Shown: piece by piece, positions 1-50,583 of the stretch | Layout: each line of letters opens with the position of its first letter | Numbering within the stretch: the stretch's first letter is position 1 | Assembly: GCA_023920165.1 (NCBI GenBank) | Contig: CP089278.1 | Coordinates: forward strand, 3,224,001 to 3,288,000 | DNA: 64,000 bases | Direction of reading: 5' to 3' | Source: Curvularia clavata | Taxonomy: Eukaryota | Notes under the pieces: model-generated | The model's database searches: none | Told to the model about the DNA's origin: nothing | What the model saw: only the letters and a program-made list of their open reading frames with translations | Program-made: the position numbers and the translations under genes

Positions 1-1590
1 CAGGAAAGGCAAATGTGATAAGCTGAAGGATCAGGCCTGTGCCGATAAATGCGCTAAATGCTGTTGAGGATCCGAGGTAGATACATCCGATAATAAATAT
101 TACAAATCCATTTGCGCAGAGAGCCCATACGGGAGTCTGCCATCGCACGTTTATGCGCGAGAGCTTCGAGGAGGCAACTAGGCCAGAGTCCAGGGCGAAT
201 GACCAAGTCAGACGCGAGGCGGTCTGCTGACAGCCTGCGGTAGCCAAAAGTCCAGCTACCAATGTGAAGACCAAGAGAGCGGTTGCTGCAGCCTCAGAGT
301 TCATTGCTTGGCGCCAAAGTTCGAAAATAGGGAAGCTGCTCAAAAGTCAGCACAATTCTGTTTGTTCAGTTGGGTTGATGTAACGCATTACCCAGTCTTC
401 GTTGTCGCAACCGCGTTAAAGTCTTGGACAGAATACATGCAAGCAACCGCTGCTATGAACGATGTAACAAATCCAATAGCCCAGGTCGACAAAAGAGCTT
501 TGGTAACAGCTTCTCGAGCGTTGAGGGCTTCCTCTGCTAGGTGGATTGCTCCATCTATGCCCGCATACATATAACCAGGGGTAAGAAGCCCGATCAAAAA
601 TACAATTCCTTTATTGTTCCAGCCGCTCAGATCGACGAATGTAACCCAGACGGCTTTGCTCGACTGGAAATGGGGGGCTCGCGCTAGACTAGTGGTTGTG
701 GCAGCTATAAAGGCGACGAGCGATAACGCAACTGTAACGCGCGTAGAGTTAGTGTCATGGTCAACTCATCCACTATATCCAAAATACTTGCAGATAAGTT
801 CGAATAGCCACATTGTCCGTCGAATGGTGAAAACGTTGTGCAGCAGGCACAATATGCTTACTACCTGGTAGATTATAAACACGTGCCACCGTTGGAGCTC
901 GTAAGAGGGGTTGTAGTTGATGACTAGAGCTAGTAGTGCTTGTGGGACGATAATGGCCACGCCGGAAGAGAGCGCTGCCCAGGCAAATATGTTGATCATA
1001 CCGCATGTGTAGCTCTACAGTAGACCATTTCAGTGTCCGAATCAAAACCCAGAATATTGTCAGAGTTTGCTTACTGTGAGACGGGCGCACCACTTCGGGG
1101 CCACGACCGCTGTCCAATGGTATCTGCAGCATGTCGTTTCAGTGCTGTATCTGACCCAAAGACCCGAGAAGACAACTTACTGTCCGCCTGCTGAAGGATA
1201 AACACGGCACAACTCTGCCAACGTGTATACAACGCAGCCATACATGATAAAGATGAACCAGAGTCCATAGAGAAGACCTGGTGAGCCGCCATTTGAAAGG
1301 CTGAATGCGAGTGTTGCCATAACGCCCACCCAACTGTTGCAAATGCTCCAGCCCACAGATACGATATCGAGGGTGCTGATATCACGCGAGGCTTCAGAGA
1401 CATAGCCTTCCTGAAACGACTCTACTTTCGTCCGTCTGCCTGTCGCGATATTGCGATTAGCGATCGACTACTGTCCATTTGCACTAGGTTACGTACCGGA
1501 GATGGATTTAGACTGCGTCAGTCCATCTAATGCCTTGTCCTCAATGACAGACATCTGTGCTCTTTCATAGTCGTTCTCACCGTTGGTCAT
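1..1590 (-). CDS. APC-superfamily amino acid/amine permease (choline/GABA permease, Hnm1/Uga4-like), multi-exon, runs off the left window edge
   Basis: Hydrophobic exons including GLLTPGYMYAGIDGAIHLAEE and INIFAWAALSSGVAIIVPQALLALV...LQRWHVFIIYQ, typical of fungal ACT-family permeases. ATG at 1590 (MTNGENDYE...). Divergent from the flavin amine oxidase. Confidence 0.85.
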
Positions 1591-2085
1591 ATTGAATGAT
1601 CCGAACAACTCTGGAAACTGTCGATTTGCAGTGAATAGGCACCAGGATCGCCTTTGACTGAGGGAAAATCCATAGAAGCCGTCAGCATGTGGACAGAGTT
1701 GTATAAGAGCATACCGTATCACTATCAACTAGGCCCCTCAGCTGTGACTTATCGCACCATCACCATCAGCATGCCGTCCTATCCTATCGGATCCACTCGG
1801 TGCGACTATCACTGCTCCGCATTTTGTGGATCTGGGGAAATATGGGGACGACAACAGGTGATGGTGCACGGGCCCCGGAACCAATTACCGCATTTGGATT
1901 TCGCAGTGGACTGGTGGCGCTACCGATTCATGGATCTCAAGTCATGAGATGGTCTGTGCCTAATGCGGCTCGCATTACCCTCTTGGTCGCATGGGCAATG
2001 CTCACACGCCAATATAACTCGAGACAGATGGCTTCGCCATGACCATAAGCATCTCAATCATTGAATATCGCTCTTGATTGTAAAC

Positions 2086-3772
2086 ATGGCGCACACAAAA
2101 GAAGGCCACAAGTACGACTGGTCAGGGATATCGAAATGTCTGAGAACCGATGCTGTTGTGTCAAGCACACCAAACCCAAGGTAAATGACTTTTGTGAACA
2201 GGTCACTCTCTGTCAGCACTGATTTGGTGGAAGATGATGTTGAGGCGTGCCTCATGCAGTGCCAATCGCTGACCGCTTCTATAGGAACAAGTACGATGTC
2301 ATCGTGATTGGGAGTGGATTCTGTGGACTTGTTGCAGCTCGTAACCTGTCTTTAGATCGTGACGTAAGAGTCCTGCTTCTAGAGGCTCGCGATCGCATTG
2401 GGGGTCGCACATGGACAGCGAAAGCGTGGGGAGAAGACCTTGAGATGGGAGGCACATACGTACATTGGTAGTTACACATGGTGTAGAAGATGGTGTGACG
2501 CTAAGCTGACAGATCTTGCTAGGCATCAACCCCATTTCTATGCTGAACTATATCGACACGGTCTGGAGAGGCACCTCAAGCCCTCAGCTGGAACGACAGA
2601 CATGGAATACGTATTAAACAAACCTAAAGAATCAAGCGTGCAAAGGATAGACAACGTGACGGAATACAACGCAAGAATGGCGAATTTCGCTGATCAGTTC
2701 TTCAGCATTGACGGTATGACTCCACGCCAGCTGATGCCTTACCCACACGAACCTTTACGATCCCAACCATGGCAGAAATATGACCATCTGAGCTGTCAAG
2801 ACCGACTCAACCAGCTAGACTTACCGCAAGACGACAAGGATCTTTTCGTTCCCCATGTAAACTCCTTCGGCAGCTGTACTGCTCACGATCTAGCGTGGAC
2901 AGATGCATTGCGATGGTATGCTGCTGGTGGCTATAGTCTCGCGACCATGTATGATGCTGTTGGTTGCTTCAAACTTGGTGGCGGAGGCACGACAAATATG
3001 TGCCGCCATATACTAGCAGAGTATAAAGGTGATAGAGTCTTCAATAAGGTGGTCAATGCTATCAAGCAGACCAAAGACTCTAAGGTTATCGTTACCTGTA
3101 CGGATGGATCTGCTTACAGTGCGAGACGAGTTATTTGCACCATCCCACTCAACTGCTTAGCTGATGTTAAGTTTGAGCCACCGTTAACACCTTGGAAGGA
3201 AAACGCAGTTCGAGAAGGTCATATCAACTGTGGTGAGAAATACATATTCTCATTAGATGAGGTGCAAGGCAATTGGTTCGCGAACACTTGCGATTCTAAA
3301 GATAGTGGTTTTCTTTTTGGAATCAAGGATCATGATGGTATGTATAGTCTCTAGCGCGACCTAAATCGCTTTGTGACTAATAAGAGCAGGGACACAATCA
3401 GCGAACCAAGCGGGCACATACGTCTTGATGTTTGGCCAGAATGGAAAGCTTCAAGACCCCACAAATAGTGATGAGATTATTACTCAATTCAGAAAGCTTC
3501 AGCCTTGTGGGAACGTGCGGGGATATGTGTCTCACACATGGTCTAAAGATCCGTATGCCAAAGGCGCATGGTTTGCAGCTGCCCCTGGCTGGGCCACCAA
3601 AAACCTGAAGGCACTTCAGGAGCCCCATGGCCGTGTTTTCATGGCTAGCGCAGACTGGGCACAAGGCTGGAGAGGCTTCATTGATGGCGCCATTGAACAA
3701 GGTACCAGGGCAGCAGCGATCACAAAGTTCGCACTCGAACAGGAAAATGGGAACTTAGATGCTAAGCTCTAG
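2086..3772 (+). CDS. Flavin-containing monoamine oxidase (MAO-N-like), C-terminal PTS1 -AKL
   Basis: ATG 2086 ([12 protein letters not shown]). FAD-binding [12 protein letters not shown]...[14 protein letters not shown]...[10 protein letters not shown]-terminal [20 protein letters not shown]; ends LDAKL*. Three GT-AG introns inferred. Confidence 0.92.
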
Positions 3773-4423
3773 ACCGGAAGTCACCCAAGATATCGAGATC
3801 CTTTGGACACTAGTATATAGGCATTGATTTGTTCCTCAACGACTTTTCATAATCTCTCCGCACTATTCACAATGAAATAAGAAGAGAAGTTCCATCAGCA
3901 ATCAATTCATTTATTAATCAATCGTTGCCACAACTAGAGTGCTCACGCAGATTATGTGTTCACAGTATTCGCCCCATCGGACCTCACCACTGCAATTTTG
4001 GCCTTGTGGGGTGCAAAGCGACAATCTAATTCATTGCAATCCAAAACACTCCATAATCAGTGATGCGTGTTCCCTAGATCTCTCCAATCTTATCAGGAGA
4101 ATGCTTATTCGGTGTGGACAACTCTCAGAGCACGAAGTGATGGCGCCTGATCTCGGTGTCACGAGGGCCCAATCGCTCTATCAAGCGCCTCTAAAGGAAG
4201 TAATCGGAACAGAAAATGACGCCATTACGTGGCAACACCGTTGCAACCGGCGTTGGCTCCCAAAACGAAAGTCTAATCTGCATGATCTGCGACGCCAACA
4301 CATAACGCCTTATCATCCAATCGGAATCATCATCTTCCCTACGGTCGGCCTGATCAGTGCATGAATGCTAACATCTTTTAAGAAAAATTAGGATAATGTA
4401 AGCTATTGAGGTTTTGAGACGTA

Positions 4424-7400
4424 ACGTAGTTTACAAGCGAGTCGGCCATACAAGCGAGTCGGCCACCCCACCAACTTATGCACCTCTACAGGCGTATAGC
4501 TCCACCATATTATAATGATATAAATATATATTAATATACTAGATTAAGTAGTATCTAGAGTATCTTTCTTACATATACGTGAGTTATGGCCAGTCTCTCT
4601 ACACCTACTACAGCGCGCTAGAGCCTGGCGGCTAACACCTGATCGCTCTCCACCCTGACGCTCCTTATAAGCAATCTGCTTATTGGCCTCACATTGAGTA
4701 AGTATATCCTCGCCAGCTCCCTTTGTAAGAACTCCACGCTTCTGTATCCACTTTTTCTTACACTTTCGACGCTCTGATATTGCTGTATTAGCTCTCTTAA
4801 GGCTAGCAATTCGATCGCGCATTAGCTCAGCCGAGAGTATCATCACCTCTACCCCCTTCTTAAGCTGGCTAATCGCTGCAATAATTGACGCTGGTGATGA
4901 GCTTTTATGCTGTCAAACGCGATTACTTATTAGCGTTGATTGAGCTTCAAGCTCGCGTAGGTTGCCTGGCGTATAGGCCTGCCAGAGAGCTTCTATGAGA
5001 GCAGCTGGAGGAGTAGGCGTACGCAGCTGTACGTCAAGCTTTGAGAGAACAGCTTCTAGCTGCAGAGAAATAAGACCTACGCCTTAGAAAGCTGAGCAGA
5101 TATTGGCTGACGTGAAGGATCTATCGAACGCTGCCTTAAACGCTGGTAGAAACTCAAGCTTGGTGATGTGGTTAATATGGTTGCGTATCAGACTCTCCAC
5201 CTCACAGCTATACGCGCGCTTTAGCGGCGAGAAACAGCCAACATCAAGAGGCTGAAGTAGATAAGACGAGTAGGGCGGCATACAGAGCGTATAGATATTG
5301 TTCTCCTTGCAGAGCTCTTAGAACTCAAGTGACTGGTGGCTCTCATAGCCATCAAGAATAAGTAGCCGGCGTGCCCCAACAACCTTGCTATCTGTATACT
5401 TAATAAAGTGCTTTAGCCACTCAACTCCTAGCTCGTTAGTCGTCCAGCCATTATCGCTAACTGCGATCGCCCAGTCGCGTGGGATATCTGCCTCCTCGTA
5501 CCAAACAGATAGGTGATACTTACCAGTAAAGATCAGAAACAGTGGGATAGACCAGCCAGCTGCGTTAATCCCAGCGATAAATGTCACCCACTCGCGACTA
5601 CCTGGCTGGACAGCCTTTGGCCGAGCTCTTCTTTCTGAAGCTGTAACGACAAGCTAAGTAGTAATCTTGCCCATTAAAAAGCCAGCTTCGTCAAAGTTAT
5701 AGACGTCCTCATCACAGATGCCGTACTTAGCCTTTATCTGCTCTACAAGCTCAAACCAGCTCTTGATTAAGACCGGATCTTCGCATAGGGCTCTCTACCT
5801 ATCGTACGCTCGATTAAAACGCGTCGTAAGACTGTCTGTACGCTTGACAAAGTTGCGCGGCCAATAGACGCCAACCTAGCCAGCGCCGCGCGCAGCCAGG
5901 AGTCTATCAGCCATATCGCGCACAGCTACGTAGGTAGGCGAAAATCCACGTAGATCGAGATCAAGTATATAGTTGATTATCACCTCCTTTTCTAGCTTGG
6001 TAAGCTTCTTTGAGTTGGGCTGGCAATCGCGTCGGGCAGGCTTGCCAGCGCGTCGGTTATTGAGTGTAGATTTTAGAACATTATATGCTGACGCAGCCTG
6101 TCTAGAGCTACTTAGCTGCTGGCTATGAAGAGAAGAAATAGCAAGAATAATATCAACTTCATTGCGAGATTGTAGAGTACGTAGTGGTGGAGCCATTATG
6201 GTGTATAGCTTTCAAAGTGCACAAAGTTGGTGGGGTGGCCGACTCGCTTGTATGGCCGACTCGCTTGTACTCGCCCCACGGAGCCTAGTTCTGCCGAACT
6301 AGGCCCTACCCAGCTCAACGTCAACCACCAGCTCAACGTCAATTTTGCTACCCCCCACCACTTCGACTCGATTTTTCTCTACAATAATATATCGCAGCGC
6401 TTTAGAACTTACGCGCAGATTAAAGAGCGTATTAAAATTGCTATTACTAAGTTAGATAGTAGTATCCACGTAAATATACGCGTAGTAGCAGACTATAATT
6501 ATATGCCCTACAGCAGGCTCTAAAAGCGCGTCTTAGGCCGCGCATTAAAAATAGAGCGCGCTATACCAAATCGAAGACTTAATTAATAATAGAAGGATGC
6601 TCCAAAAGCTTATATTACTCACTATAACGTATTATATATACCTCCTTTTATACTGTAGCTAATTTCTACCGCGCAGCGGATTCTTAATCTCGAGCACTTA
6701 GATGGCAAAGCACCACCTATAGGCAAAAACTAGATCTTACGATAGCTAGCGTATAATCTAGACTACCGCCGTAAGAAGCAGAAAAAGCAGGAAATAAAAC
6801 GCCTAGCGGCTAACACAGTAGAGGTCTACAAGAGGCACTTTGCTACTCTAAAGCGCGTAATTAATAAGTATACTATATAGCCTAGAGATCTATATAATAT
6901 AGATAAGATAGATATCTATATAGGCGTTAGAGGCCAGCAGTACGTTATAATAATGGCTAGCGATAATAATACTATACAGTTACCGTCTAATATAAATCGC
7001 GAGTCTGTTACAGTTATCAAGACTGTCGCTGCTAACGGCTTAGTTCTAGCACCATTCATTATTCTTAAAGATAAAGCATACCTCTTAAAATAGTACACTA
7101 ACACAAACTTACCTAACGACTATATAGTAGCTGTCTCAGAGATAGCGTACAATAACGACGAGCTCTCTCTTAAGTAGATTCAATACTTTAACGCCTATAG
7201 TCGTCGCCATCAAACAGATATCTAGAGGCTATTAATTTTTAATAGATTTAGATTCTATAGTATAAAGAAGCTGATTGATTTTTATAACAACAACAATATA
7301 GTACTTTTCTTACTCCTCTCCCATACCTCTCACAATCTGTAGCCTCTTAATATTAGTATTTTTCAAGCATATAAGAAGCACTACAGAGGCGTTGTTAAGA

Positions 7401-8217
7401 GAGCTGCTCGCGAGAGCTGCACTAATTTCAACAAGCTTAAGTTTCTATACGCAATTAATAGCGTTAGAAGATATATATTCAAATCTAGTACTATTTAAAA
7501 AGCCTTTAAATTAGTAGACGTCTAGCTATAGAATTCTAAAAGAGTATTATATAAGCTCGCGCGCCTATAGAGAGTATTAATATCTAAAAAAATAAGCTAT
7601 CTCTTTTAAGCCTCTAAGACGCCTACGCCTATAATTCTTCGCTCCTTTATTACGTACGCTTGTAAAACGCAAGAGCTCTATAATTATACTAAGAATATAC
7701 TAAGTAATTAGACTGTGTAACTTACTAGAGCGTTAGTTATACTAGGTTTAAACTACAATCTTGCGACTCGTAAGCTTGCTAAGACTATAGCTGCTACCCG
7801 CGAGAGGGCTCAGCGCTAGGATAACTCGCGATTAATAATTTAGAAAAGAGATATAGTTACAGCTAAAGATGCGCGGGAGGCTGTATCTTAAAAAGCTAAA
7901 ATCGCTAAGCAAAAGGCTATACGTAAGGCTGTAAGAGAGACAAGATAGCGCCTCCGAGATACCACCCAGCAGCCAACACCTGCCTCTGTAGAGGCCTCAA
8001 CACTAAGTCAACAGACACAAGTAATACGTTTTATACACTAAGAAACACCTTACACTTAGTAGCTATAGTAAATATATAATATTTCGTATATTTTTGCGGC
8101 CAATTTACAATACAAATCGCATAGGTTAGCAAAATTGACGTTGAGCTGGTGGTTGACGTTGAGCTGGGCAGGGCCTAGTTCGGCAGAACTAGGCTCCGTG
8201 GGGCGAGTAAACTACGT
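4424..8217 (-). mobile_element. pogo/Fot1-family DNA transposon, RIP-inactivated; one TIR interrupted by a second element
   Basis: TIR ACGTAGTTTACAAGCGAGTCGGCCATACAAGCGAGTCGGCCACCCCACC at 4424. The other TIR is split into ...GACTCGCTTGTA (to 6269) and AACTACGT (8210-8217). TA TSDs at 4422-23 and 8218-19. Transposase fragments (NGWTTNELG, LLQPLDVGCFSPLK, C-terminal CCHC) contain stop codons. Confidence 0.92.
6270..8207 (+). mobile_element. Second pogo-like DNA transposon (1938 bp), heavily RIPed, nested in the TIR of the previous element
   Basis: TIRs CTCGCCCCACGGAGCCTAGTTCTGCCGAACTAGGCCCT... and ...AGGGCCTAGTTCGGCAGAACTAGGCTCCGTGGGGCGAG, with TA duplicated at 6268-69 and 8208-09. TpA-rich interior retains degenerate DDE_1 motifs (SHNL*PLNISIFQAYKKHY). 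Confidence 0.9.
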
Positions 8218-8575
8218 TATTGTGTTCTGTTCTTGGCTATCTTGCTAAAGAGATATTCAAGGATAGCATAGTTCGTCGTTGAACAACCACGTAACTGCAC
8301 ATGGTGTCCTGGGTTTACAGATAAAGCGCACCATTTTATATGGCACACTGGTTGGACGGCGACGCTGCAGAATCGGGGAATCGGCAGAAGAAGTCTCATG
8401 TTACCATATTGGGAAAATTTAGCCAGCAGATACCGCACTTGGTCTAGGGCCTCCCCATCACGAGATGAAGGTCACCTTGTGAACTTAAAGCACACTACAT
8501 CTGCATATGCATAGCCATAGATCTATATTCAAACGAGATAGCAAATCTTATACTAGAGCCACAACAGTCACAAAG

Positions 8576-9057
8576 ATGCCAGTCGAATACAAATCTGCCG
8601 CTGAGAGATACAAGCTCACCGATCAAGTCAACAAATACGTTTTCTTCGGTCAGTCCGCTTATCTTTTGAGAAATTACTGAAAATTAATACCAATCGTTGC
8701 ATTTCCAGATGACATCTTCAGTTCGAGGGGAGAAAACACCCAAAACCCATTAGCTGGAATATGGTTTCGTATAGAGAAAGGGGGCCCGCCAGTTGGTCCT
8801 GGAATTCATACCTATGATGAGAGTGGGGTTGTCTACGAAGGTACACGAGCAATCTTTTAAGATTTTCAAATATTCGTGGTTGCTGCAGAATCTGACTCTT
8901 TCAAGGCACGGTTACTATGAGCGATGAGACTGGGGCCGAGAGAAAATTGGGCCCTGGAGAGAGCTTTTTTATTCACCGCGGCAGCAAAGTTCTATTCTCT
9001 TCCGATGACTTTGGGGTATGCTACAAGTGTGCGGCACGGCCGAAGGGAAAATTGTGA
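8576..9057 (+). CDS. EutQ-like small cupin (ethanolamine-utilisation EutQ family), 3 exons, about 119 aa, ends -GKL
   Basis: Absent from the ORF track. Exons 8576-8648, 8709-8840 and 8906-9057 with GT-AG introns splice in frame: MPVEYKSAAERYKLTDQVNKYVFFDDIFSSRGENTQNPLAGIWFRIEKGGPPVGPGIHTYDESGVVYEGTVTMSDETGAERKLGPGESFFIHRGSKVLFSSDDFGVCYKCAARPKGKL. The TYDE..VYEG..SDETG...PG..FFI..GS pattern matches fungal EutQ-like cupins. Confidence 0.82.
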
Positions 9058-9522
9058 TCACCGAAGTAGCCGTGATTGCGAGTCGTGACATGTATTTTTA
9101 GCCCTATCTTCAAGCTGCGGTCTTTCTCCTAGCAATCAAGTGTCCTGCCTCTCACTACTTTAATCTTGAATTATTACCAATACTTGTCATTACTTTACAC
9201 TATCTGTCCCTAGCATTCGCATTGGCCAAGTTGCGAGCTGCTATGGCACTATCTTGTATGAACGTCGTGGCTAAGCAGGCGTTCTAACTCGTTCTGCAGT
9301 ATGAACAAATCGATTGCAAGAATTAAATAGGCCAACTTACTTGGCAAGTATTATTTTTCTACAACAATATATAGTCCACTACGACATGGACTTCCTTCAA
9401 GTATGGTGTCATGGAAGACAGACAACAGCAGCGCGAGTACAGGCATCATTTTCATACCTAAACAATCCACCCTTATCTCAGAATTTCATTATTGCAACTG
9501 TAGAGACCCATCTTTTGTCGTG

Positions 9523-11222
9523 CTACAAACGTGGTACCACAATTTTGACTGCCTTGACTGTTGTCCAATCTTCCAAAGCTTCCAAACCGCCATCTCTGCC
9601 GAAACCGCTCTGTTTGTGTCCTGTTTTACCGAAATCAGCATAGTTCCAGCCCTAGCAATGCAAAAATCTTTGCATCTAAGTGACAAGCTAACATACCTCC
9701 AAACGGCATATTAGCAGCCAACATGCCCCACGCATTGATGGTAACCTGGCCGCTCTCGAGGCGGTCCGCAACTCTATGCGCACGGGCAAGATCCTTCGTA
9801 AAAATGGCAGCAGACAAGCCGTACTCAGAGTTATTGGCTTTGTGGATGATTTCTTCTTCGTCATGAAATTTGGCGATGGACTGTAGATGGAAATGTAAGG
9901 GTCAGCGCACTTTGTACAAGTCTCTTAGGGCCTCAAAAGAAAGGTACTCACCGCCACTGGTCCGAAGATCTCTTCTCTCATAATAGCCGAGTCTTCAGGC
10001 ACATCGAAAAATGCTGTGTTTTCAATGGCATTGCTATCTCCGATTCGCCTCCCTCCATGCAACAATGGCGTACCGTTCGCCTTCGCGTTTTCGATATATT
10101 TTGAGACCTTTTCCCGCTGCTGATCGCTAATGAGAGTTCCTTTGTTGGTTCCCGGTTCCATGGGATTACCAAGCGCAGCATTCTTGCATCGATCAGAAAA
10201 GGCCTTCAGAAACCTTTCGTAGACGGTGTCTTGCACGTAAATTCGGGAGCCGGCGGCGCATATTTCTCCTTCGCCTGTAGTTATTCCAATCACAGCCCAT
10301 GTCACTGCCTCATCGAAATCAGCATCGTCGAATATGATCGTTGGGCTCTTTCCTCCGAGCTCGAGAGACACTTTTTTAAGGTTGCTCTCGGCTGAGGCTT
10401 TCAAGATGGCACGTCCAGTAAGGGTAGAGCCAGTGAAGGCAATCTTGCGAACTTTCATATGGTGGGCCAAAGCAGAACCGGCCGTGGAGCCAAGACCTGG
10501 TATGATGTTGATAACACCGGGTGGAAACCCAGCTTCGGCAACCAGCTTGGCCAGATGCAAAGCCGATAGGGGTGCAAGCTCAGGCGGCTTGATGATTAGC
10601 GTATTCCCGGCCGCTATGCAAGGAGCAATTTTCCAGCAAGTGAGCATCCTACAATCATCAATGTCTCTTATCATCTTGGAAAACACTGCGCATCAACTCA
10701 CAGGGGCGTGTTCCAAGGCACAATGGCCGCAGTAACCCCGTAGGGTTCTCGGCGTGTGTATGAGAAGCCCGCTCTCTCTAGCCCTTGATTCCAATCGACA
10801 CTTCTTCCGTCCATTTTATCAGCCCAGCCAGCGAAATATCTAATCCATTCGCAAGCCATTGGCCCCAGCTGACCACTTGTTGTCGCGAGTAGCGCGCCGA
10901 CATCGTTGCTTTCGAGGATGGCGAAGATTTCGAGATCGCGTTCGACTAGGTCAGCAAGCTTCAGTAGAAGATGCCTTCGCTTCGCTGCTGCAGTTTGCTT
11001 CCATATACCCTGGTATGCGCGATAGGATGATACTACTGCAGCGTCAACATCTTTCGCTGTAGCTCCCGAGATGACACCGATGGTTTGCCTGGAATATGCA
11101 TTCTTGATATCGATTGTATGTCCTTCGAGGGATGTAACGAATGTATTATCAATGAAAAGACCCGTAGGCACTGAGACTTGTTTGCCCTCTGGACCTTGGA
11201 TACTTAATGTTGATACCGCCAT
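9523..11222 (-). CDS. Aldehyde dehydrogenase (ALDH superfamily), 4 exons, ends -PRL
   Basis: Motifs IVPWNTPL, WKIAPCIAAGNTLIIKP, FTGST, catalytic LELGGKSP, GEICAAGSR, EEIFGPV and PFGG|HKQSGFGRDGG. Last exon ends ...VKAVKIVVPRL* at 9523. Confidence 0.93.
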
Positions 11223-11751
11223 GTCGATACAATTCTTGTGTAGCTCTTCTCGACTCGTGAATTACGCCGCGTGAATAGAGATTCGAATATTATATCTGTT
11301 TCATTTGTCTAATATGCTCATGTCGCACCGCACAGTTAAGCCTACACAATCGTGGGGTAGGTTCTGACTAAAATTGCCTAAACGGGAATGGCTAGGCTAT
11401 ATGTGCCTGAAGTAGCTTGGTCCGCGCTCGATCGGTGCAAGTCCAGGATACTAGTGCATGCTGCATGACAGGGCTGAAGCAATCAGGCCCAGTCATCGCA
11501 GCTCCTCTTATGCACCGTGTGTAAATTTTCTTCCAGACTCAGCGGGAGTGCCATGCGCGATTCGTCTTGATGTGCAGCTAGTTCCAGAGCGGTGGTAGGG
11601 CGATCCGGGAGAGCTAGCTTTACATAAGAGGATAGATGAGACGCTTGCTCTGAACTTGCCTTGTCTTGCTGGATTCCGCTTCATTGTTCTTTTCTGTTCA
11701 TCTTTGAGGAAATATAAGAGGATTAATTCGATCAACCACAACGCACGCACG

Positions 11752-13985
11752 ATGGCTTTGGATCGTCTGAAGCAGGCGGCGAGCCATGTGACCGGCATTG
11801 GCCGCGCCCCGCATCCGCTGGACCCCTTGATCGAGACGGAGATTGAATATGCCGTTACCATCATCCGAAAGGAGCACCGTAATGTTGCTTTCAATGCAGT
11901 TACCTTGTATGAGCCGCCCAAAGCGGTCATGCTGAAGTGGGTCAAAGACCCGGAGCAGACGCCTCGCCCGAACAGAGTCGCGGATGTTGTATGCGTCGGG
12001 AAGGGTAGCAAGGTCTTTGATGGTCTTGTCGACCTGACAGACGGCAAGATACTCAAGTGGGAAGAGACGTCGGATGTTCAGCCTTTGGTGAGAATCCCCT
12101 AGGGAGATGCGTTTTACGGGCGGCATTGACCACGATCAGATTACTATGGAGGATCTCCAAATTGTTGAGTCAGTTATCCGGAAGGATCCGAAAGTCATTG
12201 AGCAATGCGGAATTGTTGGCATTCCCCCAGAGGATATGGAAAAGGTTTACTGTGACCGTGAGTATTGCACTTCTATCATCAGTTCGGAATTCTAATAACA
12301 CCCAGCCTGGACTATTGGCTATGATGAGCGGTTCGGTTCGAAAATCCGACTTCAGCAGGCTTTGATGTACTACCGTCCGCACCCAGACGACAGCCAATAC
12401 ACCTACCCGCTAGATTTCACACCCATATACAACTCCGACACGCAGGAAATTATCCACATTGATGTTCCCCCTGTTCGTCGGCCAGTCAATAAGGCCCCAC
12501 CAAATAACTACCATACCGCCGCAATTGAGAAAGAAGGTGGCTTCCGTACAGACTTAAAACCTATCAATATCACGCAGCCCGAGGGTGTCTCATTCTCACT
12601 CGATGGCAGAGTTCTTAGCTGGCAGAACTGGAAACTACATGTGGGCTTTAATTACCGCGAGGGCCTAGTCTTGTCCAATATAACGTTCAATGATAAGGGC
12701 ACTGAGCGCGATACTTTCTGGCGGTTATCTCTCGCTGAAATGGTAGTTCCGTATGGAAATCCAGAGCACCCTCATCAGCGGAAACACGCTTTTGATTTAG
12801 GAGAATATGGTGGAGGATATATGACAAATTCGCTCAGCCTTGGCTGTGACTGCAAGGGAGCCATCCATTATATGGATGCAGCTTTTGTTAATAAGGCTGG
12901 TGCTGCTACTACTATCAAGAATGCTGTCTGCATTCACGAAGAAGATGCAGGCATCCTCTTCAAGCACACCGACTTCCGCGACGAATCTGTCATAGTGACG
13001 CGCGCCCGCAAGTTGGTCATCTCTTACATCTTCACAGCCGCAAATTACGAGTACTGCGTTTACTGGTGAGTTATGTAGATCTTGGCCCCAATGCTGGAAA
13101 TGGGATTTTATTGACATTTTTAGGATCCTACATCAAGATGGCACCATCCAGCTGGAGATTAAACTCACTGGCATCTTGAATACATTCCCCTGTAATGAGG
13201 GTGAGGATCACCATGGCTGGGGCACAGAAGTCTACCCAGGTGTTAACGCGCACAACCACCAGCATCTCTTTTGCATGCGCATCGACCCTAATATTGACGG
13301 TCCTAACAACACTGTCTACATGGTTGACGCCGCGCGTGGCTCTGGCGAAGTTGGCTCCCAGGAAAACAGATACGGCAACGCTTTCTATGCGCTTAAGACG
13401 AAGCTCGCAACGCCTGAGCAGGCAGCCACCGACTACAACGGCGCTACAAGCCGCACATGGGAAGTATGCAACGAGAGCAAAATCAATCCCTACTCTAAGA
13501 AGCCTGTCTCATACAAGCTTGTCAGCCGCGAAGTCCCCGAGCTGCTCCCAAAGCCAGGCGGCCTTGTCTGGAAGCGTGCCGGCTTCGCACGGCACGCCGT
13601 GCACGTTACCAAGTATGATGATGGGCAGCTGCACCCAGCAGGACGTCATGTTCCACAGACGTCCGGCGACATCTCTCAGGGAATTCCACAGTGGATTGCG
13701 GCCAATCCTACCGCTGATATCACGAACACTGACGTCGTGCTGTGGCACACCTTTGGTATCACGCATTTTCCATCGCCCGAGGATTTCCCTGTAATGCCTG
13801 CAGAGCCGATGACGTTGTTGTTACGGCCGAGGAACTTTTTCACAAGAAATCCGTGTCTCGATGTGCCGCCGAGTTACTGCAGTGTTCCGAGTGGTGTAAG
13901 GCAGGAGGGTGCGATGGTGGACAAGTTGAGCAGGATGGCGTTTGGCGAAGATCAGAGTGGGGCGAAGGGGTGCTGTCAGAAGTAA
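11752..13985 (+). CDS. Copper-containing amine oxidase (TPQ), peroxisomal type with PTS2-like N-terminus
   Basis: ATG 11752, MALDRLKQAASHVTG...PHPLDPL. TPQ consensus ANYEY, catalytic Asp in HAFDLGEYG, copper ligands HNHQH and GITHFP. Three introns. Confidence 0.95.
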
Positions 13986-17703: not shown

Positions 17704-19232
17704 CTAGGACCAATTACCTTCGAGTTCGATCTTTTCGCCTCTTTCTGATGCAGAAATAAGCTCTTGAATCGTCCAAGGCTTGTAGATGTACCCAGGAAAG
17801 TAATTGGTGTCGGCAAAAGGCGTTTTGTCGATAAGGTGGTTAGCTGCAGCCTCGTACATATCATATGCATACTGTTCGGGGTCGTGATTTCCCATCCATC
17901 TCTTCATTTCCACAGGAAGCTTGCTAGAGTCCTTTTTCAAGGCTGCGAAATCAGCCTTATGTAGAAGCTCTCGATTCGCAAATCCCTGGAGCTGAGCACA
18001 GGCGACACGTTCGAAGCGAAGAAGGTTGTAAACACGGCAGGCAAGCGGTATGTCTCCTTTGTGTCGACCTCTCTGGGAAGCGATGTGCAGGCAGGCGGCC
18101 AGCGTGAATCCATCTTCCATTGCCATGGCGGCTCCACTTCCAGAAGTAGGGAGGAAAGCATGTGCGGCATCGCCCATTTGGGCAACACGGCCCTGTGGCG
18201 AGACCATCTTCGGCTGCGGATTGCGCCACATTAACTTCCAGTCGATAGCTTTGCCTCCAGGAGTAGCTTTTATCAGCTCCGAATAGAAAGGTGCCCAGTC
18301 TCTCACATATGGCAGGGCATTTTCAACCGGTGCATTCTGTGCCCAATTCTCCTCTGCATTCCCACTGTCCTATTCGTAGTAAGCCTCACATCATTTCTAC
18401 TCAGAGAGGAAATAGAATAGATTACCTTGTGGGTCATCGTCCACCAGATAGTACTCTCGTTCTTCCCAAACACGCCATGTACATCGGGCCCAAAATGAAT
18501 CCCCATGTAGGTTTTACATCCATTGAACTCTTTCGCAATGATTGGATTTTTTAGTGCGGGTTCGGCTGGGAAGCTGACTCTATAGACCGCAAAGCCAGTG
18601 CTGATAGCTTCCTCTTTGCGTCCCGTGATGAGCTTCCACGATGTTGAACCCACCCCATCAGCCGCAACGACGAGATCGGCCTCCAGCATTCTACCATCGG
18701 TAAGTTTTACCTTGCCGGCTATACCACTTTCCTGGTATTCCTGTACAGCAGTGTTGAATTCAACCAAGATGCCAATGTCGATCGCGTAGTTAAAGAGGGC
18801 TGCATGGAAATCGTTACGGTTTATAGGGAGAGCTTTGTCGCCCTCTGGACCCAACTGCACCTTCCCGAGAAGAGTACCGTCGTATACTTTCCAAACAAGG
18901 ACGGGCTCGTAGGCGAACACGGCCAGACGCTCCATGAAACCAGGCCATCTTTTGGGTGAACGCAAGGACGCAGGCTGAAGCACAATAATATCTCCTAACT
19001 CCCTGTTAGCACGACATATATTACAGCGACGAAAATAAAGAATGTCAGGGATAAACACGATCGGATACAACTGACCAAGATCGTCAAGCCCAGGACGGCG
19101 CTCAATCACTCGAACATTGTGGCCTTTTCGGTACGCCTCGATTGCAAAACAGAGGCCGCCTATTCCTCCTCCAACTACAAGGATTGAAATATTGGTCGCT
19201 GGTGAGCGCTCAAAATTGATCTTGCTGTCCAT
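17704..19232 (-). CDS. FAD-dependent monooxygenase (FAD_binding_3; MAK1/OpS4-like group)
   Basis: ILVVGGGIGGL; DLVVAADGVGS; MGDAAHAFLPTSGSGAAMAMEDG; HDPEQYAYDMY tail. Two introns. Confidence 0.9.
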
Positions 19233-20110
19233 GTTTGAAAATGTGTGCTTCTATTCGGTCGCTTCTTGTTCGTTGGTACTGGTATTTCGGGAAGTTGAGT
19301 TTGTGAATTATGCTTGAATCATTTCACTCTAGTTGCAGATTTATAGACCGTCTTAGACGGTCTCAGTACTGTGGGTCTCTTTCTCGGACGAAGGATATTG
19401 CCCATTTCCGAAGTTCGAGCGCGCATATAAACTATGGATAACGATCATCGTCTGGGCATATACAGAGGGTCATGGGTAAACAACGTTAGTAGGTTTTCTT
19501 AACGCATAGACAAGGCTTTCAGCTGATCAAAGCGTAACATAAAGTGAATTAGGAAGGATAAAAAGCACCACAATGATAGCATGCTAGGGAGAAACTGCGG
19601 CTTACTAGGGGTGTAATGATTGCCCTCAAGGGATGAAACGAAATTTGCTATCCTCGCCACCAATCACAAGAGTAAAAACAGGCCTTTAGAGAGCACTATA
19701 CCTATCTAGATAAGAAAACACGTACTAACGTTACTTACCCATCACCCTCTGTAGCTGCGCGATGATCTTAGGTTTTTATTCTATAACTTATGGGTCTTGT
19801 CAAGTATCAGATGGTGTCTATTAGCGCTTTAGATTGCTAGATAGAACACTATTGTAAAGCCCACATTGTGACCTACCCCTCAATAGGCTATAGAACCTTT
19901 CACTCTAGACTAGCCGCTGGATAAGACCTATGCATAGATAGCAGTCATGACATTTATAGTTACATAGCTTAATTCAAAGAGCATTAGTTTGTAGTCAGCA
20001 TAGCACATCCGAGGGATTTCTTTGTTGCTTGAGGACTTGGACCCTTACTTGCCACGTCACGGTACAGACGATCAATTGTGCCCACTTTATCGTACCGGAA
20101 CATCAATCGT

Positions 20111-20463: not shown

Positions 20464-22305
20464 ATGGACACGTATTATCAGTACAACCCCCTGAACGAGG
20501 CCGCTCTTGAGATTCATCTTGTGAAGTTGCTACCTGGCGATGGAAGCGTTCGCATCGCAGTACAGACCTTCCCTTTAGTGAAAGCCCCACCATTTGACGC
20601 TCTCTCGTACCACTGGGGATCTAATGATATGGTATCATTCAGTGTGAAGGCGCTATTATGAGCGTAGCACCCAGCCTGGGCGCTTTTCTCGAGGTACTCA
20701 AACGCAGTTCTAACACTAACTATCTTTGGGTTGATGTCATATCCGTTAGTCAAGAGAATATGGTGGAAAAAGCACAAACCATTGCCCTGATCCCCCGGAT
20801 CTATCGCGCGGCTGCATGCACTTTAATATGGACTGGATCTGAGGATCATGGACTACTGAACCGTTTTATCAATTCGACTTCCTTGATCGGCGACTTCAGC
20901 AGAGTAGCTGCGGATATGCTTACGGCGACAGACGTTTTTCGTTCCAATCGAAAAATTACACACCAGGATTTGCGAAATTTTCATGGGTTGACGGGTGGCA
21001 CTCATTGGGTTACATGTGATAGGCAGTGGGGCGTGAGCACGTTTCTGAAGCGAACATATTCCATGAGGCACGTCCAATTCTAGTGCGATATTGGTTTGAC
21101 CAGCCTGACCAGATATCAGACTCTGGATACTACCAGATATTATTTGTTCCCAAAACCCCATCATCTTATTCGACGAGAAAGAGAGCATGCCATGGGGACG
21201 ACTTGCGAGTGCTCTGCTCATCTGGCTATTCTTCAACCCCACTTCAAGCAGCTGCCCCTTAGTCCTATTTGTCATCTGTAGTGAAGCCATGCGGCGATCC
21301 TTTCATGGTTTGAGTGACACACAACTGAGTGTGGCCGACGTGCTGCTAAGTTTGCACAGCTTCCCAAGGGAGGCGATCGATCAACGAGACCATGTCTACA
21401 TGTCGTACTCAGTTGCCAGGGCCATCGACTGGATCAGCAATCACTTCAAGGTTGATTATACAATGTCTGCGGACGATGTATTTCGCCACGCTGCCTTTGA
21501 GCTCAATGGTGTATCGGGCCAACCTCTGAGTCTCTCGTTGACCGATAGTGCCCGTTCAGAACTACCATCGTGGACGCCCGATTGGACACCTCAGAGCATG
21601 AGGTTCTTGCTCAACCATGCTACGAGCAAATTCCCGGCATCTCCATATGCTGTGTGCCAGGTGGACTATCGGCACCAGACCGATCATCACAGACAAACTC
21701 AACCTCCAGACGCAAATATTACCTTCTCTGGTCTTTTAGTAGATGTGGTCAAGCACCTAAGCAGTTTTTTACCGCCACGGCGTCATTGCGACCACTACGT
21801 AGTGAATGGTGCTAACTCTTATTTCCTAAGCGAGTGGCATGAGTTCGCGAGAGAACACTCTTTTGCCAAGCGATCAGATTATCTTGTGTCGCTGGCATTC
21901 GCAGACACTATCCAGGCCAGAGGCTGTGGTCACGTATTGGAGGATGCGGGGAAGGCTCCCCAAAACCGCGTACAAGAAGTTACCGAATTCTTGGATTTCC
22001 TTGAAGATGGGGACTCGGCCGCGCATGAGACGGATCTCATTCGAGTCGTTTATGCAGCATGCTTCCCTTCTCATGACAGGAGGTTCGCAGTCACCAAAAA
22101 TGGTCGCTTTGGTCTGGTGCCTGAAGCAGCCAAACGAGGCGATTTGGTCTGCATTCCTCATGGGAGTCGAGTACCCTACATTCTTCGCCCATACAAAGAA
22201 AAGGACTTGTATCAGAATATTGGAGAAGCATTTGTACATGGATTAATGCACGGAGAAGCTGGTGAGATAGAGGTACAGGACATAAGAACTTTCTCTTTGC
22301 ATTGA
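20464..22305 (+). pseudogene. HET-domain (HET-6-like) gene with a frameshift
   Basis: YQYNPL..EIHLVKLLPG...FDALSYHWG shifts frame near 20633 into IIQCEGAIMSVAPSL...LWVDVISVSQ. The RLWIIQE motif has degenerated to RLWILPD. C-terminal LPSWTPDW and GDLVCIPHGSRVPYILRP...IGEAFVHGLMHGE are present. Confidence 0.75.
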
Positions 22306-22349
22306 CATTGAGGATCATTCATTTTCTCTTGTGCGGCGAGAGCACGCGA

Positions 22350-24540
22350 TCATTGCTGCGAAGTCGTTTTAGGTTTACCACCAACTACCTTCCACAGCAA
22401 ACTCTTCACTTTTTGTTTTTTCTTCCGAGGTGAACGTTGATCAGGTTTGAGGTCCCCAGCCAGCATACTCCTTTCCTCAAGCGAACGCTTGTTGGAATCA
22501 TCGGCTTTTGCCTTGACGGCTGGGGCCTCTTCGTGCACGCTCTCACTACTAGCTGGAGCTGCGGTAGACACATAATAGTTGATCATCATCTCCGAAAGTT
22601 CTCTCTCAAGCTCACGTGTTTTTGACGAATCCGAAACAACGCCGATGTGATAGTTGAAGATCTCGTAGAGCCCTGCGACATGAGGGCCATACTGAGGGTC
22701 TTGAGGAGATGTCTTTATCTGCGAGAATACAGCTTTGCAGATCGCCTCGTTTGGTTCGAATCCTGGGTGTGCCCAGCTCCGGATGTCCGTCGCCGATAGT
22801 TCCAGATAATCCCGCACGGTCCGGTGCAGAAAGTCGACCCTATACTCGAAGAGCATTGAAGAGGGAAGCTGCTGCGAATTCTTTTCTTGCAGAAAGTGAG
22901 GCTCGAGAAGACCTTTGCAGCCTGCGATCAGACGTTTCTTAGCATCTCTATGCCTCCTGACGGTTTGCTGCACAGTCAGAGGTCGATGTTCAGTAGGGCA
23001 ATCGTCCTCATCCAGAAACCAGTAAGCCATGAGGGGAAAATTCTCTTTGGCCACTAAAGTCACCAGAAACATTACAGAAGCCTGGTCACGACAGGTCTCT
23101 TTCACGTCATGGAACAGGATGCGCTCAAAGTATTCTTCCAGATTTTTGGGAAGATGACGCAGTCTGTCTTGTAGACGCTTGATACTATCCCCTTCACGCA
23201 GGCCTTCTTGGAATGACCGGACTACCAAGACAACCCATAGAAACACACCGTTTGCAGCGGCAACGATCTCGTTCACAAGAGCTTTACCTCTAGTCTCTTT
23301 ATCCTCCAAATCTTGGAAGTTTTCGTCGTGTGCGAACACGTCGTCAATGTAGGCATTGATATCTCGATGATTGAAGTGTTCCATGAGGAGTTTGGTTGTA
23401 TGAACCTTGCCGTAGGCTTCTTCGAACTCATTCCACTGGCGACTTGAGACACAGATCTTGACATGCTCAAGTTTTCTGAGTACATCCACGAGCTGAATGG
23501 TGTCATTTGTATCGCCGTGGTATTCATCGAGGCCATCAATGAAGAAGCAGAAACGCTTACAACACTTGATGAATCCTTTACAAGTTTGATCAAGAGCGTC
23601 TATCAGGCCCGAAATGGTCGAAGGAATGTCAAACTCGAGCGGAAAGTCGACAACATTTCTGTGAGAAGAATGGTTACCATCGTATAACTTCCAAGCACCA
23701 GGGAACACCAAGCGAATCTGGTCTGGGCACTGCCTTAGGATCTGATAGAGCAGCGACCGAAGTAGACCTTCCTGAGATTTCTGAAGCCCATTCTTGCCAG
23801 CGTCCCAGAAGAAATATTCTGCGATAACCACATCATCCTCTTTTGCCCAGACCTTGAGCTGCTCCTTAGTCGATTGGTGGCTGCCAAGCAACTTCATGAG
23901 CGTTGATTTCCCTGATCCTGGTCAACCTGACACCCAATAGAGAGTGTCGTCTGAATGGAGCCACTCAACAAAGGTCGTCGTCGAGGAGCTCGCATGCTCT
24001 ACTCGATCGCTGTGAGATCCAAAAAGCCAGGTCAAAGTCTTTTTGTGAGCTGATGAGATTTGTGAATATCGATCCTCAAGGCAAACGAAACGCAGTCTAG
24101 ACAAGATTGCCTATTCCGCAGAATAGTGAATACCTTCGGAAGCGACTTGACTGACTTGGTCGGCCCAGAGATCTTCATTTTTTTCCTTTTCTCTATCTTG
24201 GTGGTCCTTGAGAGCTTGATTGAAGTATTCTTTCACATCCACAATATCCTGTGTCCGTGAAATCTCCAGTCTCTCATTGTTCTCCAGTAGCCTATTCAAC
24301 TGAGCTTGAAGGCCTGAAGTGCGGTTGTCTGTGAAGCTTGCATCTACCGCTTGCCCTATGACCGTCAGCCTGTCGCGCAGTGCTTCGATTTCCGAGTCGT
24401 GCCACTGGGTGCGGAGCGCCTGAAGGAAGCTTGTCCATCTAGTCTTCTCCTCACTCAATCTCAGCATTGCGAGGATTGCCAAAAGCTCATCGGCAGTGTG
24501 CTTGCACTGGAGCGCCAACGCTTCCAAAGAGGTTTTGTGC
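22350..24540 (-). pseudogene. NACHT-type P-loop NTPase (NLR-like, SesA-type N-terminal remnant), 5'-truncated with two in-frame stops
   Basis: Walker A reads YWVSG*PGSGKSTLMK (TGA at 23922-24). A TAG at 24111-13 replaces a probable CAG. Walker B FFIDGLDEY, CVSSR, ANGVFLWVVLVV and DFLHRTVRDYL are present. Confidence 0.85.
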
Positions 24541-25373
24541 TGAAATGTGATATGGTCATCCCGGCTCTGTACTTGGCATTTGGTGCTTATTGTGGGACTA
24601 AACGCAAGGCTGACACTGGGGGCCTTGAGTGGGGTGCCTCGTTATCACGTGGCAGCACCATAGGTACATTGATAGGCCTAAGCAAGGCTTGGCCGACGCT
24701 TAGTCCTAACTCGTTCTTACGGTGGTCTGCAAGGTGGTGCGAAGGCGACTACAAGAGAGAAACCGCGCTCTTCTGGATTTCTACAACGCTAGACCAAAGA
24801 TGGAACCGCCCCTCAGCTGCTTATAGGTCGAGCAAAAAGTGAACGTGAATCTAAAGCGAGGAGCCCACTCGTGCATAACAGCTAAAATCTCTTTGCCGCC
24901 TGTCAGATGTGGCTCATACTTGCTTGAGCCACGCTTCGTACAACAGTGATAACTAGTTTGCACTTGTGCCAGCCGAGCAGAATCCGCTGGTAAGGAGTTT
25001 TCTTGCTGTGAATGAAGAACTCCCAGTCGCTTGCATTATTCTCCACAATCTCATTGGCAAATTCTCGAATAGAGGTGACGCAGTTAATAGAAGTGATGAA
25101 GTTGTTGGAGACGAATTCATAGCTTCAATTCTCAACTTTGCGGTCCTCAATGATCTTCATATCCTCATGAGCTACGATATTGGGCGTGTTCTTCGTTCTA
25201 AATACCCTGCGGTTCACCGTGACTTTTCTTGAGGGGCGAACCAGATTTCAAGGTAGTAAATTCTAACGTACAAGCACAGTGATTGACACTTGTACTGGTT
25301 TAGCTGTACAAGCAATGAACGCATGTGACAGCTAGCTTGATCGTTGTGTCAAGGGTTCTTACAATCCCTTCCT

Positions 25374-50150: not shown

Positions 50151-50583
50151 TACAAGAAAAAATGGCTAATTTCAAATAGCTATATCTCAGCTTATATAAT
50201 AACTAATAATAAGAAAATTTAATCTTTATATAGAGATTTACTAGATCTTAAAAGCTAGTATTTGAAATACTGCTTACTAAGCATACAGAGTATACTAAAG
50301 AATACTAAAGTAGAGAGAAAAAAAAACGCCAACTTTAAGCTATTTTTTCGCGCTTGTTTTTTGGATTTTATATATATATCTATATATAGAAAGACACTAC
50401 TAGTCTATATATATAATATATATAGTTTTAAGCTATGGTTGTCTATCTAGTTAAGTAGCTATATAAGATTTTAAATTTTGGCACTAGCTTATATAAGCAC
50501 TAGCTTAGTCAGCTATTAGTAATCAACTAGTATATAACTATAACTTTCTATTCCTAGCAACTTAAAACTGTATTCCCTACACG

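Follow-up and report, generated by a model that had tools for sequence, protein, structure and literature searches.

Gene content and organization of the locus

The first 13,985 positions of a 64-kb window of the Curvularia clavata genome (contig CP089278.1, positions 3,224,001 to 3,288,000 of the forward strand; the window hereafter means this whole stretch) carry, in this order, the genes encoding a permease, a MAO-N-type flavin amine oxidase (MAO), a small cupin, an aldehyde dehydrogenase (ALDH) and a copper amine oxidase (CAO). The most interesting features of this locus are its mosaic origin and the pairing of a MAO-N-type oxidase with a cupin that bears a putative type 1 peroxisomal targeting signal (PTS1), a pairing that appears to be old, widespread and undescribed. 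The positions of all features are listed in Table 1.

The gene order was established from stop-to-stop open reading frames (ORFs) and a Pfam scan of 40 ORFs. The DNA of the window is intron-bearing and fungal, and spliced models were obtained by fitting GT-AG introns against the closest homologues. The models of MAO, cupin, ALDH and CAO contain no internal stops. An earlier note on this DNA had described the same five genes, and their order and orientation were recovered here both with Pfam on the exon ORFs and with the spliced models. The two divergent pairs that it reported are real, with a spacer of at most 619 bp between permease and MAO and of 529 bp between ALDH and CAO. The five genes follow one another as proposed, but two transposon relics split the MAO from the cupin in the window genome, and the spliced MAO model does not start near position 1640, as had been suggested, but at 2086.

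The permease gene is incomplete, as its 3' end lies beyond the window start. No usable ATG occurs in its first long exon, and the exon bearing the start codon is placed somewhere in 1468-2085. In the protein-language-model Atlas, the permease exon matched only generic Ascomycota AA_permease clusters, a result that speaks neither for nor against the Hnm1/Uga4 family named in the earlier note.

Table 1. Position and structure of the cluster genes, their shared upstream regions and other elements of the window
Feature	Position	Strand	Details
APC-superfamily permease (AA_permease_2), partial	2..1467	-	Pfam E=1.1e-7 on 2-346
Permease/MAO shared upstream region	1468..2085	.	From gene models; also holds the first permease exon
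MAO, 491 aa	2086..3772	+	Exons 2086-2180, 2285-2467, 2523-3337, 3390-3772 (3 introns)
Element A, decayed pogo/Tc5-type transposon	4432..6269	-	46-nt perfect terminal inverted repeats
Element B, transposon relic	6268..8209	.	86-nt terminal inverted repeats, 98% complementary; abuts element A
Small cupin, 118 aa	8576..9057	+	Exons 8576-8648, 8709-8840, 8906-9057 (2 introns); ends -GKL
ALDH (ALDH1/2-like, NAD(P)-dependent), 499 aa	9523..11222	-	Exons 11222-10702, 10648-9952, 9880-9697, 9620-9523
ALDH/CAO shared upstream region	11223..11751	.	From gene models
CAO (copper/topaquinone (TPQ), HPAO type), 691 aa	11752..13985	+	Exons 11752-12087, 12140-12257, 12306-13065, 13124-13985
Cytochrome P450	14795-16126	-	Pfam; directly after the cluster
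Flavin adenine dinucleotide (FAD)-dependent monooxygenase	17707-19250	-	Pfam
Second cytochrome P450	62725-63861	+	Pfam

The MAO and cupin pair and its conservation

The MAO exons match the Pfam family Amino_oxidase (PF01593) at 2383-3351 and 3377-3769 (E=2.8e-16 and 3.2e-14, respectively). The FAD-binding motif GxGxxG is present as GSGFCG at residue 41, and the spliced model is 84% identical to the Bipolaris zeicola orthologue P0007. Residues 5-477 of the 492 of P0007 aligned end to end with Aspergillus niger MAO-N (2vvm, E=1.1e-74), which was its best solved match and was followed by pseudooxynicotine and nicotine oxidases. With the family match, the motif and this alignment, the protein can be classed as MAO-N-like, in agreement with the earlier note. 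The tree of MAO sequences (25 rows) was poorly resolved and had long branches, and it is compatible with vertical descent and patchy retention. Horizontal transfer of MAO was considered and rejected, the tree being broadly consistent with the class phylogeny.

The conservation of the gene linkage was followed by two indirect routes, namely the order of accessions and locus tags and a scan of metagenomic contigs with an alignment of MAO. Regarding the first, MAO and cupin have consecutive numbers in B. zeicola (EUC30525/24), in B. oryzae (EUC49663/62), in two assemblies of B. sorokiniana (EMD68568/67 and GGP41_003219/220) and in Zymoseptoria tritici IPO323, 3D7 and 3D1; in Z. tritici 1E4 they are three apart. 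In B. oryzae the series includes the ALDH, with ALDH, cupin and MAO being EUC49661/62/63. In both assemblies of B. sorokiniana the CAO precedes the cupin by two numbers (EMD68565/-/67/68 and GGP41_003222/-/220/219; the middle number was not seen), and CAO and cupin are also two numbers apart in B. victoriae. Moreover, a MAO match (P0018) and an ALDH match (P0204, 77% identical to the ALDH of the window) are each found on a JGI contig of 8759 bp, which suggests that both lie on one contig.

The metagenomic scan yielded 17 loci, which were reduced to seven lineages with usable flanks and five short uninformative contigs; the lineages were sorted by tblastn with the window exons and by Pfam on 136 flanking ORFs. 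The cupin adjoins the MAO in six of the seven lineages, in three relative orientations and at MAO identities down to 33%. The permease (-), MAO (+) and cupin (+) are followed by a Fungal_trans_2 regulator in L001/2 (63% MAO identity), and permease (-), MAO (+) and cupin (-) were found in L003/4 (67%). In these four loci the permease exons are orthologous to those of the window (57-76% identity by tblastn) and divergent to MAO. L005/7 (45%) carries a regulator, cupin (-) and MAO (+), L006 (47%) cupin (+) and MAO (+), L010 (41%) another AA_permease_2 gene with cupin (+) and MAO (+), and L015/17 (33%) cupin (-) and MAO (+), then an ALDH 33% identical to that of the window. A permease is therefore a neighbour in three lineages of the seven, and the Fungal_trans_2 regulator adjoins the MAO-cupin pair in L002 and L005. 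In L008/9 (48%) the MAO is alone, beside Pex13. This gene (L009:11999-13393, minus strand), located downstream of the cupin-less MAO, encodes a peroxin of peroxisomal import, and its position there is probably a coincidence.

The earlier note had named the lack of co-localisation in other fungi as the result that would speak against a cluster, and co-localisation was found to be conserved. The six lineages and the accession order in Bipolaris and Zymoseptoria together represent the linkage expected of a catabolic cluster, conserved across species above the background level of synteny, and the linkage of ALDH and CAO to the MAO-cupin pair was found only within Curvularia and Bipolaris. Judging from this distribution, the five genes do not form a single unit of ancient origin: MAO and cupin, whether or not the permease accompanies them, are an old and widespread pair, and the ALDH and CAO are a lineage-specific addition. 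Amine oxidases of peroxisomes and catabolic gene clusters of fungi are both well documented, and a full-text literature search found no description of a cupin or permease partner for MAO-N, of the MAO-cupin pair or of the five-gene set. The available text of a paper on tyrosine modules (PMC3914699) does not mention amine oxidases.

The family of the cupin is less clear-cut than that of its partner. The window protein shares 100 of 117 residues with P0001 of Bipolaris, and Pfam gave no match on its own exons. Only four relatives were recovered from the word index (P0001-P0004), all of them small cupins. One of these, P0002 (ENA, 173 aa; L003:3904-4437, minus strand), is an unspliced read-through, and its length is inflated from about 118 to 173 aa because both introns stay in frame. 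None of the four homologues reaches the gathering threshold of EutQ (PF06249): three of them score 12.1, 18.4 and 11.8 bits (the fourth was unreported) against a cut-off of 21. Cupin_3 (PF05899, described as an EutQ-like cupin domain) gave 15.2-21.7 bits with a cut-off of 23.5, and Cupin_2 gave 14.7-27.3 bits, just above its cut-off of 27.2 in one of the four.

The cupin was also modelled with AlphaFold (AF2) from an alignment of 17 rows. The barrel, residues 39-111, has a predicted local distance difference test (pLDDT) value of about 85, and the mean of the whole model, whose N-terminus is disordered, is 65.5. Foldseek retrieved many small cupins with this model (probability 1.00, E around 1e-5). 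Cupin domains of the EutQ-like and (S)-ureidoglycine-aminohydrolase types are its closest relatives with a name. The Atlas places it near an Ascomycota cluster of 115-aa proteins, and every member of an Atlas Ascomycota cluster has both PF05899 and PF06249. No metal-binding histidine set typical of cupins is conserved across the cupin alignment, and the histidine of FIHRG is replaced by Pro or Arg in L006 and L017. Hence, the label "EutQ-like" used in the earlier note stands at the level of the cupin domain and not as membership of the EutQ family: "short EutQ-like cupin" is a fair structural label for a protein whose model has the RmlC-like cupin fold and whose precise family is borderline.

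Outside fungi, one bacterial phylum was covered with the cupin profile, and only weak matches were obtained, in 10 of its 401 genomes (best E=6e-7) and mostly inside ORFs of 120-395 aa. A narrower cupin alignment searched against genome contigs returned one match of 15 residues, which was discarded as spurious, and the profile search of that genome was empty. A predicted complex of B. zeicola MAO and cupin scored 0.00 twice; the prediction was run without controls and counts neither for nor against an interaction.

The earlier note had gone further and proposed a B12-independent route for ethanolamine or choline-derived compounds, via glycolaldehyde to glycolate, in which the cupin would be an echo of EutQ and the peroxisome would take the role of the bacterial microcompartment. 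This proposal finds its support solely in the family name of the cupin, and it seems quite unlikely. It is true that the neighbours of the cupin in the Atlas are clusters of short bacterial EutQ-family proteins (113-127 aa; score 0.96, 193/256 features), that the EutQ structures of Salmonella and C. difficile (2pyt/4axo) occupy ranks 2-5 of the Foldseek matches, at 1.7-2.4 A, and that the AA_permease_2 family includes amine and choline carriers. However, unrelated small cupins (TM1459, hydroxynitrile lyase, Psf4) match the fold equally well, the PF06249 scores of the homologues are under the gathering value, and the protein is only a 118-aa barrel. In addition, Pfam found no eut-type genes (EutBC, shell proteins) in the window or beside the cupin in L002, L003, L005, L010 and L017, and the oxidases show nothing pointing to a C2 amino-alcohol.

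ALDH, CAO and the surrounding region

The ALDH gene matches Aldedh (PF00171) at 9526-11261 (best exon E=1.2e-83), and its product agrees letter for letter with P0352, which NCBI lists as a named Curvularia clavata protein. Its best matches in the PDB are ALDH1/2 enzymes (E=4.8e-74), and the catalytic motifs of the superfamily are found as ELGGK, with the general-base Glu, at residue 270 and CAAGSR, with the catalytic Cys, at residue 304. In a library of 1.84 billion proteins this enzyme forms a small group of its own, with a best representative at 92% identity, fragments at 77% and 73%, and the next proteins at 56% or less.

The CAO model is likewise letter-identical to a named NCBI protein of Curvularia clavata (P0372). 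Pfam detected Cu_amine_oxidN2/N3 and Cu_amine_oxid (PF01179) at 11599-13982, with E values down to 4.8e-80, and the best solved match of the C-terminal half is the peroxisomal amine oxidase of Hansenula polymorpha (3sx1, E=1.5e-96). The motifs NYEY, with the TPQ precursor, at residue 398 and HNH, the pair of copper ligands, at residue 448 identify it as a copper/TPQ enzyme. This Cao1/AMO type is near-universal in Pezizomycotina (629 matches at E<=1e-60), and many sources name the family "peroxisomal copper amine oxidase".

Concerning its history, a tree of 35 CAO sequences placed those of Curvularia and Bipolaris nested in a clade of Didymosphaeriaceae (Paraconiothyrium, Paraphaeosphaeria and Pseudopithomyces) with a Shimodaira-Hasegawa-like approximate likelihood ratio test (SH-aLRT) support of 100. 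The CAOs of other Pleosporaceae (Pyrenophora, Alternaria) group with Plenodomus and Phaeosphaeriaceae, as taxonomy predicts. A single clade of Pleosporaceae CAOs, a group named after the tree was seen, was rejected by the approximately unbiased (AU) test (p=7e-6, at a log-likelihood (lnL) cost of 216). In Paraphaeosphaeria, consecutive tags put the CAO next to the gene for Flx1. These results suggest that the CAO of the cluster was transferred or relocated, and a transfer into the ancestor of Curvularia and Bipolaris would be simpler than an ancient paralogy because the CAOs of Didymosphaeriaceae are themselves linked to Flx1. It should also be noted that several database entries (P0058-P0061, P0065, P0067 and others) join the CAO to an Flx1-like carrier (PF00153) in models of about 1000-1040 aa. 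Such fusions in Pleosporales annotations are probably mergers of adjacent genes into one gene model.

All four soluble proteins are predicted to be peroxisomal, with targeting motifs that are conserved in their relatives, and the peroxisomal setting proposed in the earlier note is supported to the extent of this motif prediction. MAO ends in -AKL, which satisfies the PTS1 pattern [SAC][KRH][LM]. PTS1-like ends were found in all 20 near-full-length homologues (AKL in ten, SKL, SRL and AML in two each, and PKL, SHL, GNL and ASL once each) and in 11 of 12 metagenomic MAOs (ARI, SRL, PKL, AKL, PKI and SKI), the exception being L010. Of the 20 homologues, 13 were counted under the form [SA][KR]L, AKL variants being among the others. 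The relatives of the cupin end in GKL (six), AKL (two), ARL, ARM, AML and SKL; the ARM end of L005 recurs in the near-duplicate locus L007 and is included a single time. In the ALDH the last residues are -PRL, and its nearest relative outside the cluster, an ALDH of Penicillium with 56% identity, ends in -SRL. The CAO has no PTS1, its C-terminal -CQK being conserved. Its N-terminus, MALDRLKQAASHV, contains at residues 5-13 the nonapeptide RLKQAASHV, which fits the pattern R-[LI]-x5-[HQ]-[LAVIF] of the type 2 signal (PTS2) and has equivalents in all nine CAO relatives inspected; it is the predicted targeting signal. In the parts of these papers that were available, the amine oxidase of H. polymorpha is cited as a PTS2 protein (PMC9291962) and RLSQVTSHL of Histoplasma Pot1 is given as a validated fungal PTS2 (PMC13343957).

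The cluster lies in a region with many transposons. The DDE_1 transposase of element A is broken into several ORFs (Pfam at 5087-5317 and 5321-5653), and the element shares 68% identity, along a stretch of 890 nt, with intact copies located at 48.5-49.4 kb and at 59.3-60.2 kb. Element B has a GC content of 0.38, a TpA/ApT ratio of 1.66 and a (CpA+TpG)/(ApC+GpT) ratio of 0.67, a pattern like that of repeat-induced point mutation (RIP), compared with 0.6-0.7 and 1.3-1.5, respectively, in the neighbouring genes. Two intact pogo-type transposase ORFs with DDE_1 and HTH_psq domains, of 582 and 578 aa, are located at 48274-50019 and 59083-60816, both on the plus strand. They are 10.8 kb apart, with antisense ORFs at matching offsets, and resemble recent copies of a single active element. 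At 50566-51842 (+) there is a fragment of a transposase of the Tc1/mariner type (DDE_3).

Two further regions, 20628-31277 and 53647-55653, are dense in HET genes and also include NACHT/NPHP3_N-DUF7791, SesA and fungal AAA+ (DUF7025) genes. Genes of these kinds typically occur in the non-self-recognition regions of fungi, and a region rich in transposons, HET and NACHT genes is of the kind where rearrangements are common. The window also encodes a cutinase with two exons (35404-36523, plus strand) and a Tautomerase_3 protein (46949-47452, plus strand).

The cytochrome P450 and the FAD-dependent monooxygenase that directly follow the cluster raise the question of whether the genes of the cluster could act with them in the tailoring or precursor supply of an alkaloid-type secondary metabolite, rather than in catabolism. 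In the same direction, a figure legend on the flanks of the scopularide non-ribosomal peptide synthetase (NRPS) and polyketide synthase (PKS) genes of Scopulariopsis brevicaulis lists, in the portion available, a peroxisomal copper amine oxidase and an EutQ-like gene (PMC4624724), which hints that CAO and cupin may also be close to each other in a Sordariomycete. Nevertheless, this role is highly improbable. There are no PKS, NRPS, terpene cyclase or dimethylallyltryptophan synthase (DMATS) domains in the ORFs of at least 90 aa of the 64-kb window, the neighbours of the MAO-cupin pair elsewhere are permeases and regulators and not biosynthetic genes, and the CAO belongs to the near-universal peroxisomal type described above.

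Proposed function and comparison with known systems

The set of uptake, oxidation and aldehyde-oxidation functions proposed in the earlier note is supported by the identities of the genes. Taken together, the sequence data make it fairly probable that the locus is a catabolic cluster for the scavenging or detoxification of amines, with its chemistry confined to the peroxisome and built around the old MAO-cupin module. In this cluster, the APC permease would import the amine, and both the MAO-N-type flavoenzyme and the HPAO-type copper/TPQ enzyme would convert amines to imine or aldehyde, ammonium and H2O2. The ALDH would then oxidize the aldehyde to the acid. All steps after uptake would take place in the peroxisome, where catalase would handle the H2O2. 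The core of the cluster is the old module of MAO and short cupin that recurs across Pezizomycotina, frequently accompanied by the permease and in some cases by a Zn-cluster regulator. In Curvularia and Bipolaris this module lies beside the ALDH and a copy of the peroxisomal CAO whose closest relatives are those of Didymosphaeriaceae.

We also infer that the genes of the cluster are co-regulated. The upstream region shared by permease and MAO has four HGATAR sites where 2.2 are expected per 600 bp of window, which is weak evidence, and the counts across the three upstream regions are 4, 3 and 0. Two 9-mers are common to both divergent promoters in a comparison without a control.

Several observations weigh against a single functional cluster. 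Beyond Curvularia and Bipolaris, the ALDH was found near MAO, within 10 kb, in one of the seven metagenomic lineages, and the CAO within the same distance in none of the seven. In other Pleosporales the CAO is beside the gene for the mitochondrial folate carrier Flx1. The linkage in Bipolaris and Zymoseptoria is one of accession order and not of DNA, and the ALDH of B. sorokiniana itself was not among the records seen. The B. oryzae ALDH (P0290, EUC49661.1) is a model of only 230 aa that contains a run of glutamates and reads SLGGK where the catalytic motif would be ELGGK. This could reflect decay of the gene or an error in the model, and the ALDH may therefore not be maintained everywhere. 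The ends -GKL of the cupin and -PRL of the ALDH are outside the classical PTS1 pattern and fit relaxed forms only. No 8-mer is common to all three upstream regions, and in the window the transposon relics, 3.8 kb in total, now separate MAO and cupin.

Part of this evidence would be explained if two independent units simply abut, a permease-MAO-cupin module and a relocated ALDH-CAO pair, with no shared pathway or regulation. The rarity of ALDH and CAO next to MAO elsewhere, the CAO orthologues adjoining Flx1, the lack of promoter words common to all and the plastic, transposon-rich region speak for such an arrangement, and the histories also differ, roughly vertical for MAO and discordant for CAO. 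Still, this alternative, the main one to the preferred reading, is considered unlikely. The series MAO-cupin-ALDH-CAO persists in Curvularia and, by accession order, in at least three species of Bipolaris, and in L015/L017 MAO and cupin have acquired, independently, an ALDH neighbour that belongs to another subfamily. The MAO and ALDH matches P0018 and P0204, possibly on one 8759-bp JGI contig, point in the same direction, as do the peroxisomal signals on all four enzymes and the chemically complete sequence of steps. The catabolic cluster is thus kept as the preferred explanation.

Regarding the cupin, it is likely to work together with MAO, because their linkage is recurrent and independent of orientation. 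Our guess is that it acts on the imine or aldehyde product of MAO or hands it over, or else that it is an accessory protein that binds small molecules. As for the substrate, alkyl or aryl-alkyl amines of plants, for instance tryptamine or tyramine, would be a more reasonable guess than ethanolamine. Since Curvularia and Bipolaris are grass pathogens, the aryl-alkylamines of the host are attractive candidates.

A wider and more tentative proposal joins these points. The cupin might be a dedicated peroxisomal partner of MAO-N-type enzymes that traps or hydrolyses the imine or passes on the aldehyde, which would make it a so far unnoticed second component of amine oxidation by flavoenzymes, and the clusters built on this pair might repeatedly recruit permeases, regulators, ALDHs and, in this case, a horizontally acquired CAO, so that defence amines of the host would be turned into harmless or hormone-like acids such as indole-3-acetate. 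This is possible, but the chances of the whole proposal being correct are well below even.

Cereals defend themselves with compounds derived from tryptamine, tyramine and serotonin. In the cereal pathogen Fusarium graminearum, according to the available text of PMC13490858, the predicted peroxisomal CAOs AOX1-8 convert host tryptamine to indole-3-acetaldehyde and then to auxin, and they contribute to virulence; seven of these redundant CAOs had to be deleted. Because of these amine-derived defences and of the link of the Fusarium oxidases with auxin and virulence, the locus described here, present in relatives of major cereal pathogens (Bipolaris and Curvularia), is a candidate for the detoxification of host amines. 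Moreover, the discordant CAO offers an example of how a catabolic cluster can be put together from components that differ in their history. The MAO-cupin pair, for its part, gives concrete access, open to testing, to what short EutQ-like cupins do; this is a large family for which, to our knowledge, no role has been established outside the eut operon.

Among the systems with which the locus can be compared, the AOX enzymes of F. graminearum resemble the CAO of the window in that they belong to a cereal pathogen, are predicted to be peroxisomal and are followed by an ALDH step to the acid; the available text of their account reports no gene cluster, MAO or cupin (PMC13490858). The MAO of the window is like MAO-N of A. 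niger (2vvm, 2vvl, 3zdn) in that both are flavin amine oxidases of equal length, and it represents a distinct subfamily. Two alignments are about 40% identical, a value estimated by eye and not computed. MAO-N is likewise a peroxisomal enzyme of a fungus and carries its signal as a tripeptide at the C-terminus.

Regarding bacterial EutQ, the barrel of the window cupin superposes on it along 75-80 residues, which are 24-25% identical, at 1.7-2.4 A. Nevertheless, the window protein is a bare barrel of 118 aa with no eut context and with a PTS1-like end, and it lacks the long N-terminal region of Salmonella EutQ, a protein for which an acetate-kinase-type activity has been reported.

The closest solved relative of the CAO is the AMO/HPAO enzyme of Ogataea (Hansenula) polymorpha, with which it shares the copper/TPQ chemistry and an N-terminal PTS2-type signal. 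In this yeast, AMO allows the use of primary amines as nitrogen source inside the peroxisome and is described as a single gene. In contrast, the CAO of the window is head-to-head with an ALDH, adjoins MAO, cupin and permease, and has its affinity with another fungal family. Lastly, the tynA-feaB genes of Escherichia coli encode a copper amine oxidase and a phenylacetaldehyde dehydrogenase of the aryl-ethylamine pathway. They differ in belonging to a bacterium, in that the oxidase is located in the periplasm and the dehydrogenase in the cytoplasm, and in having no flavin MAO, cupin or organelle, but they follow the same logic, in which a CAO produces the aldehyde and the product of an adjacent ALDH gene oxidizes it to the acid.

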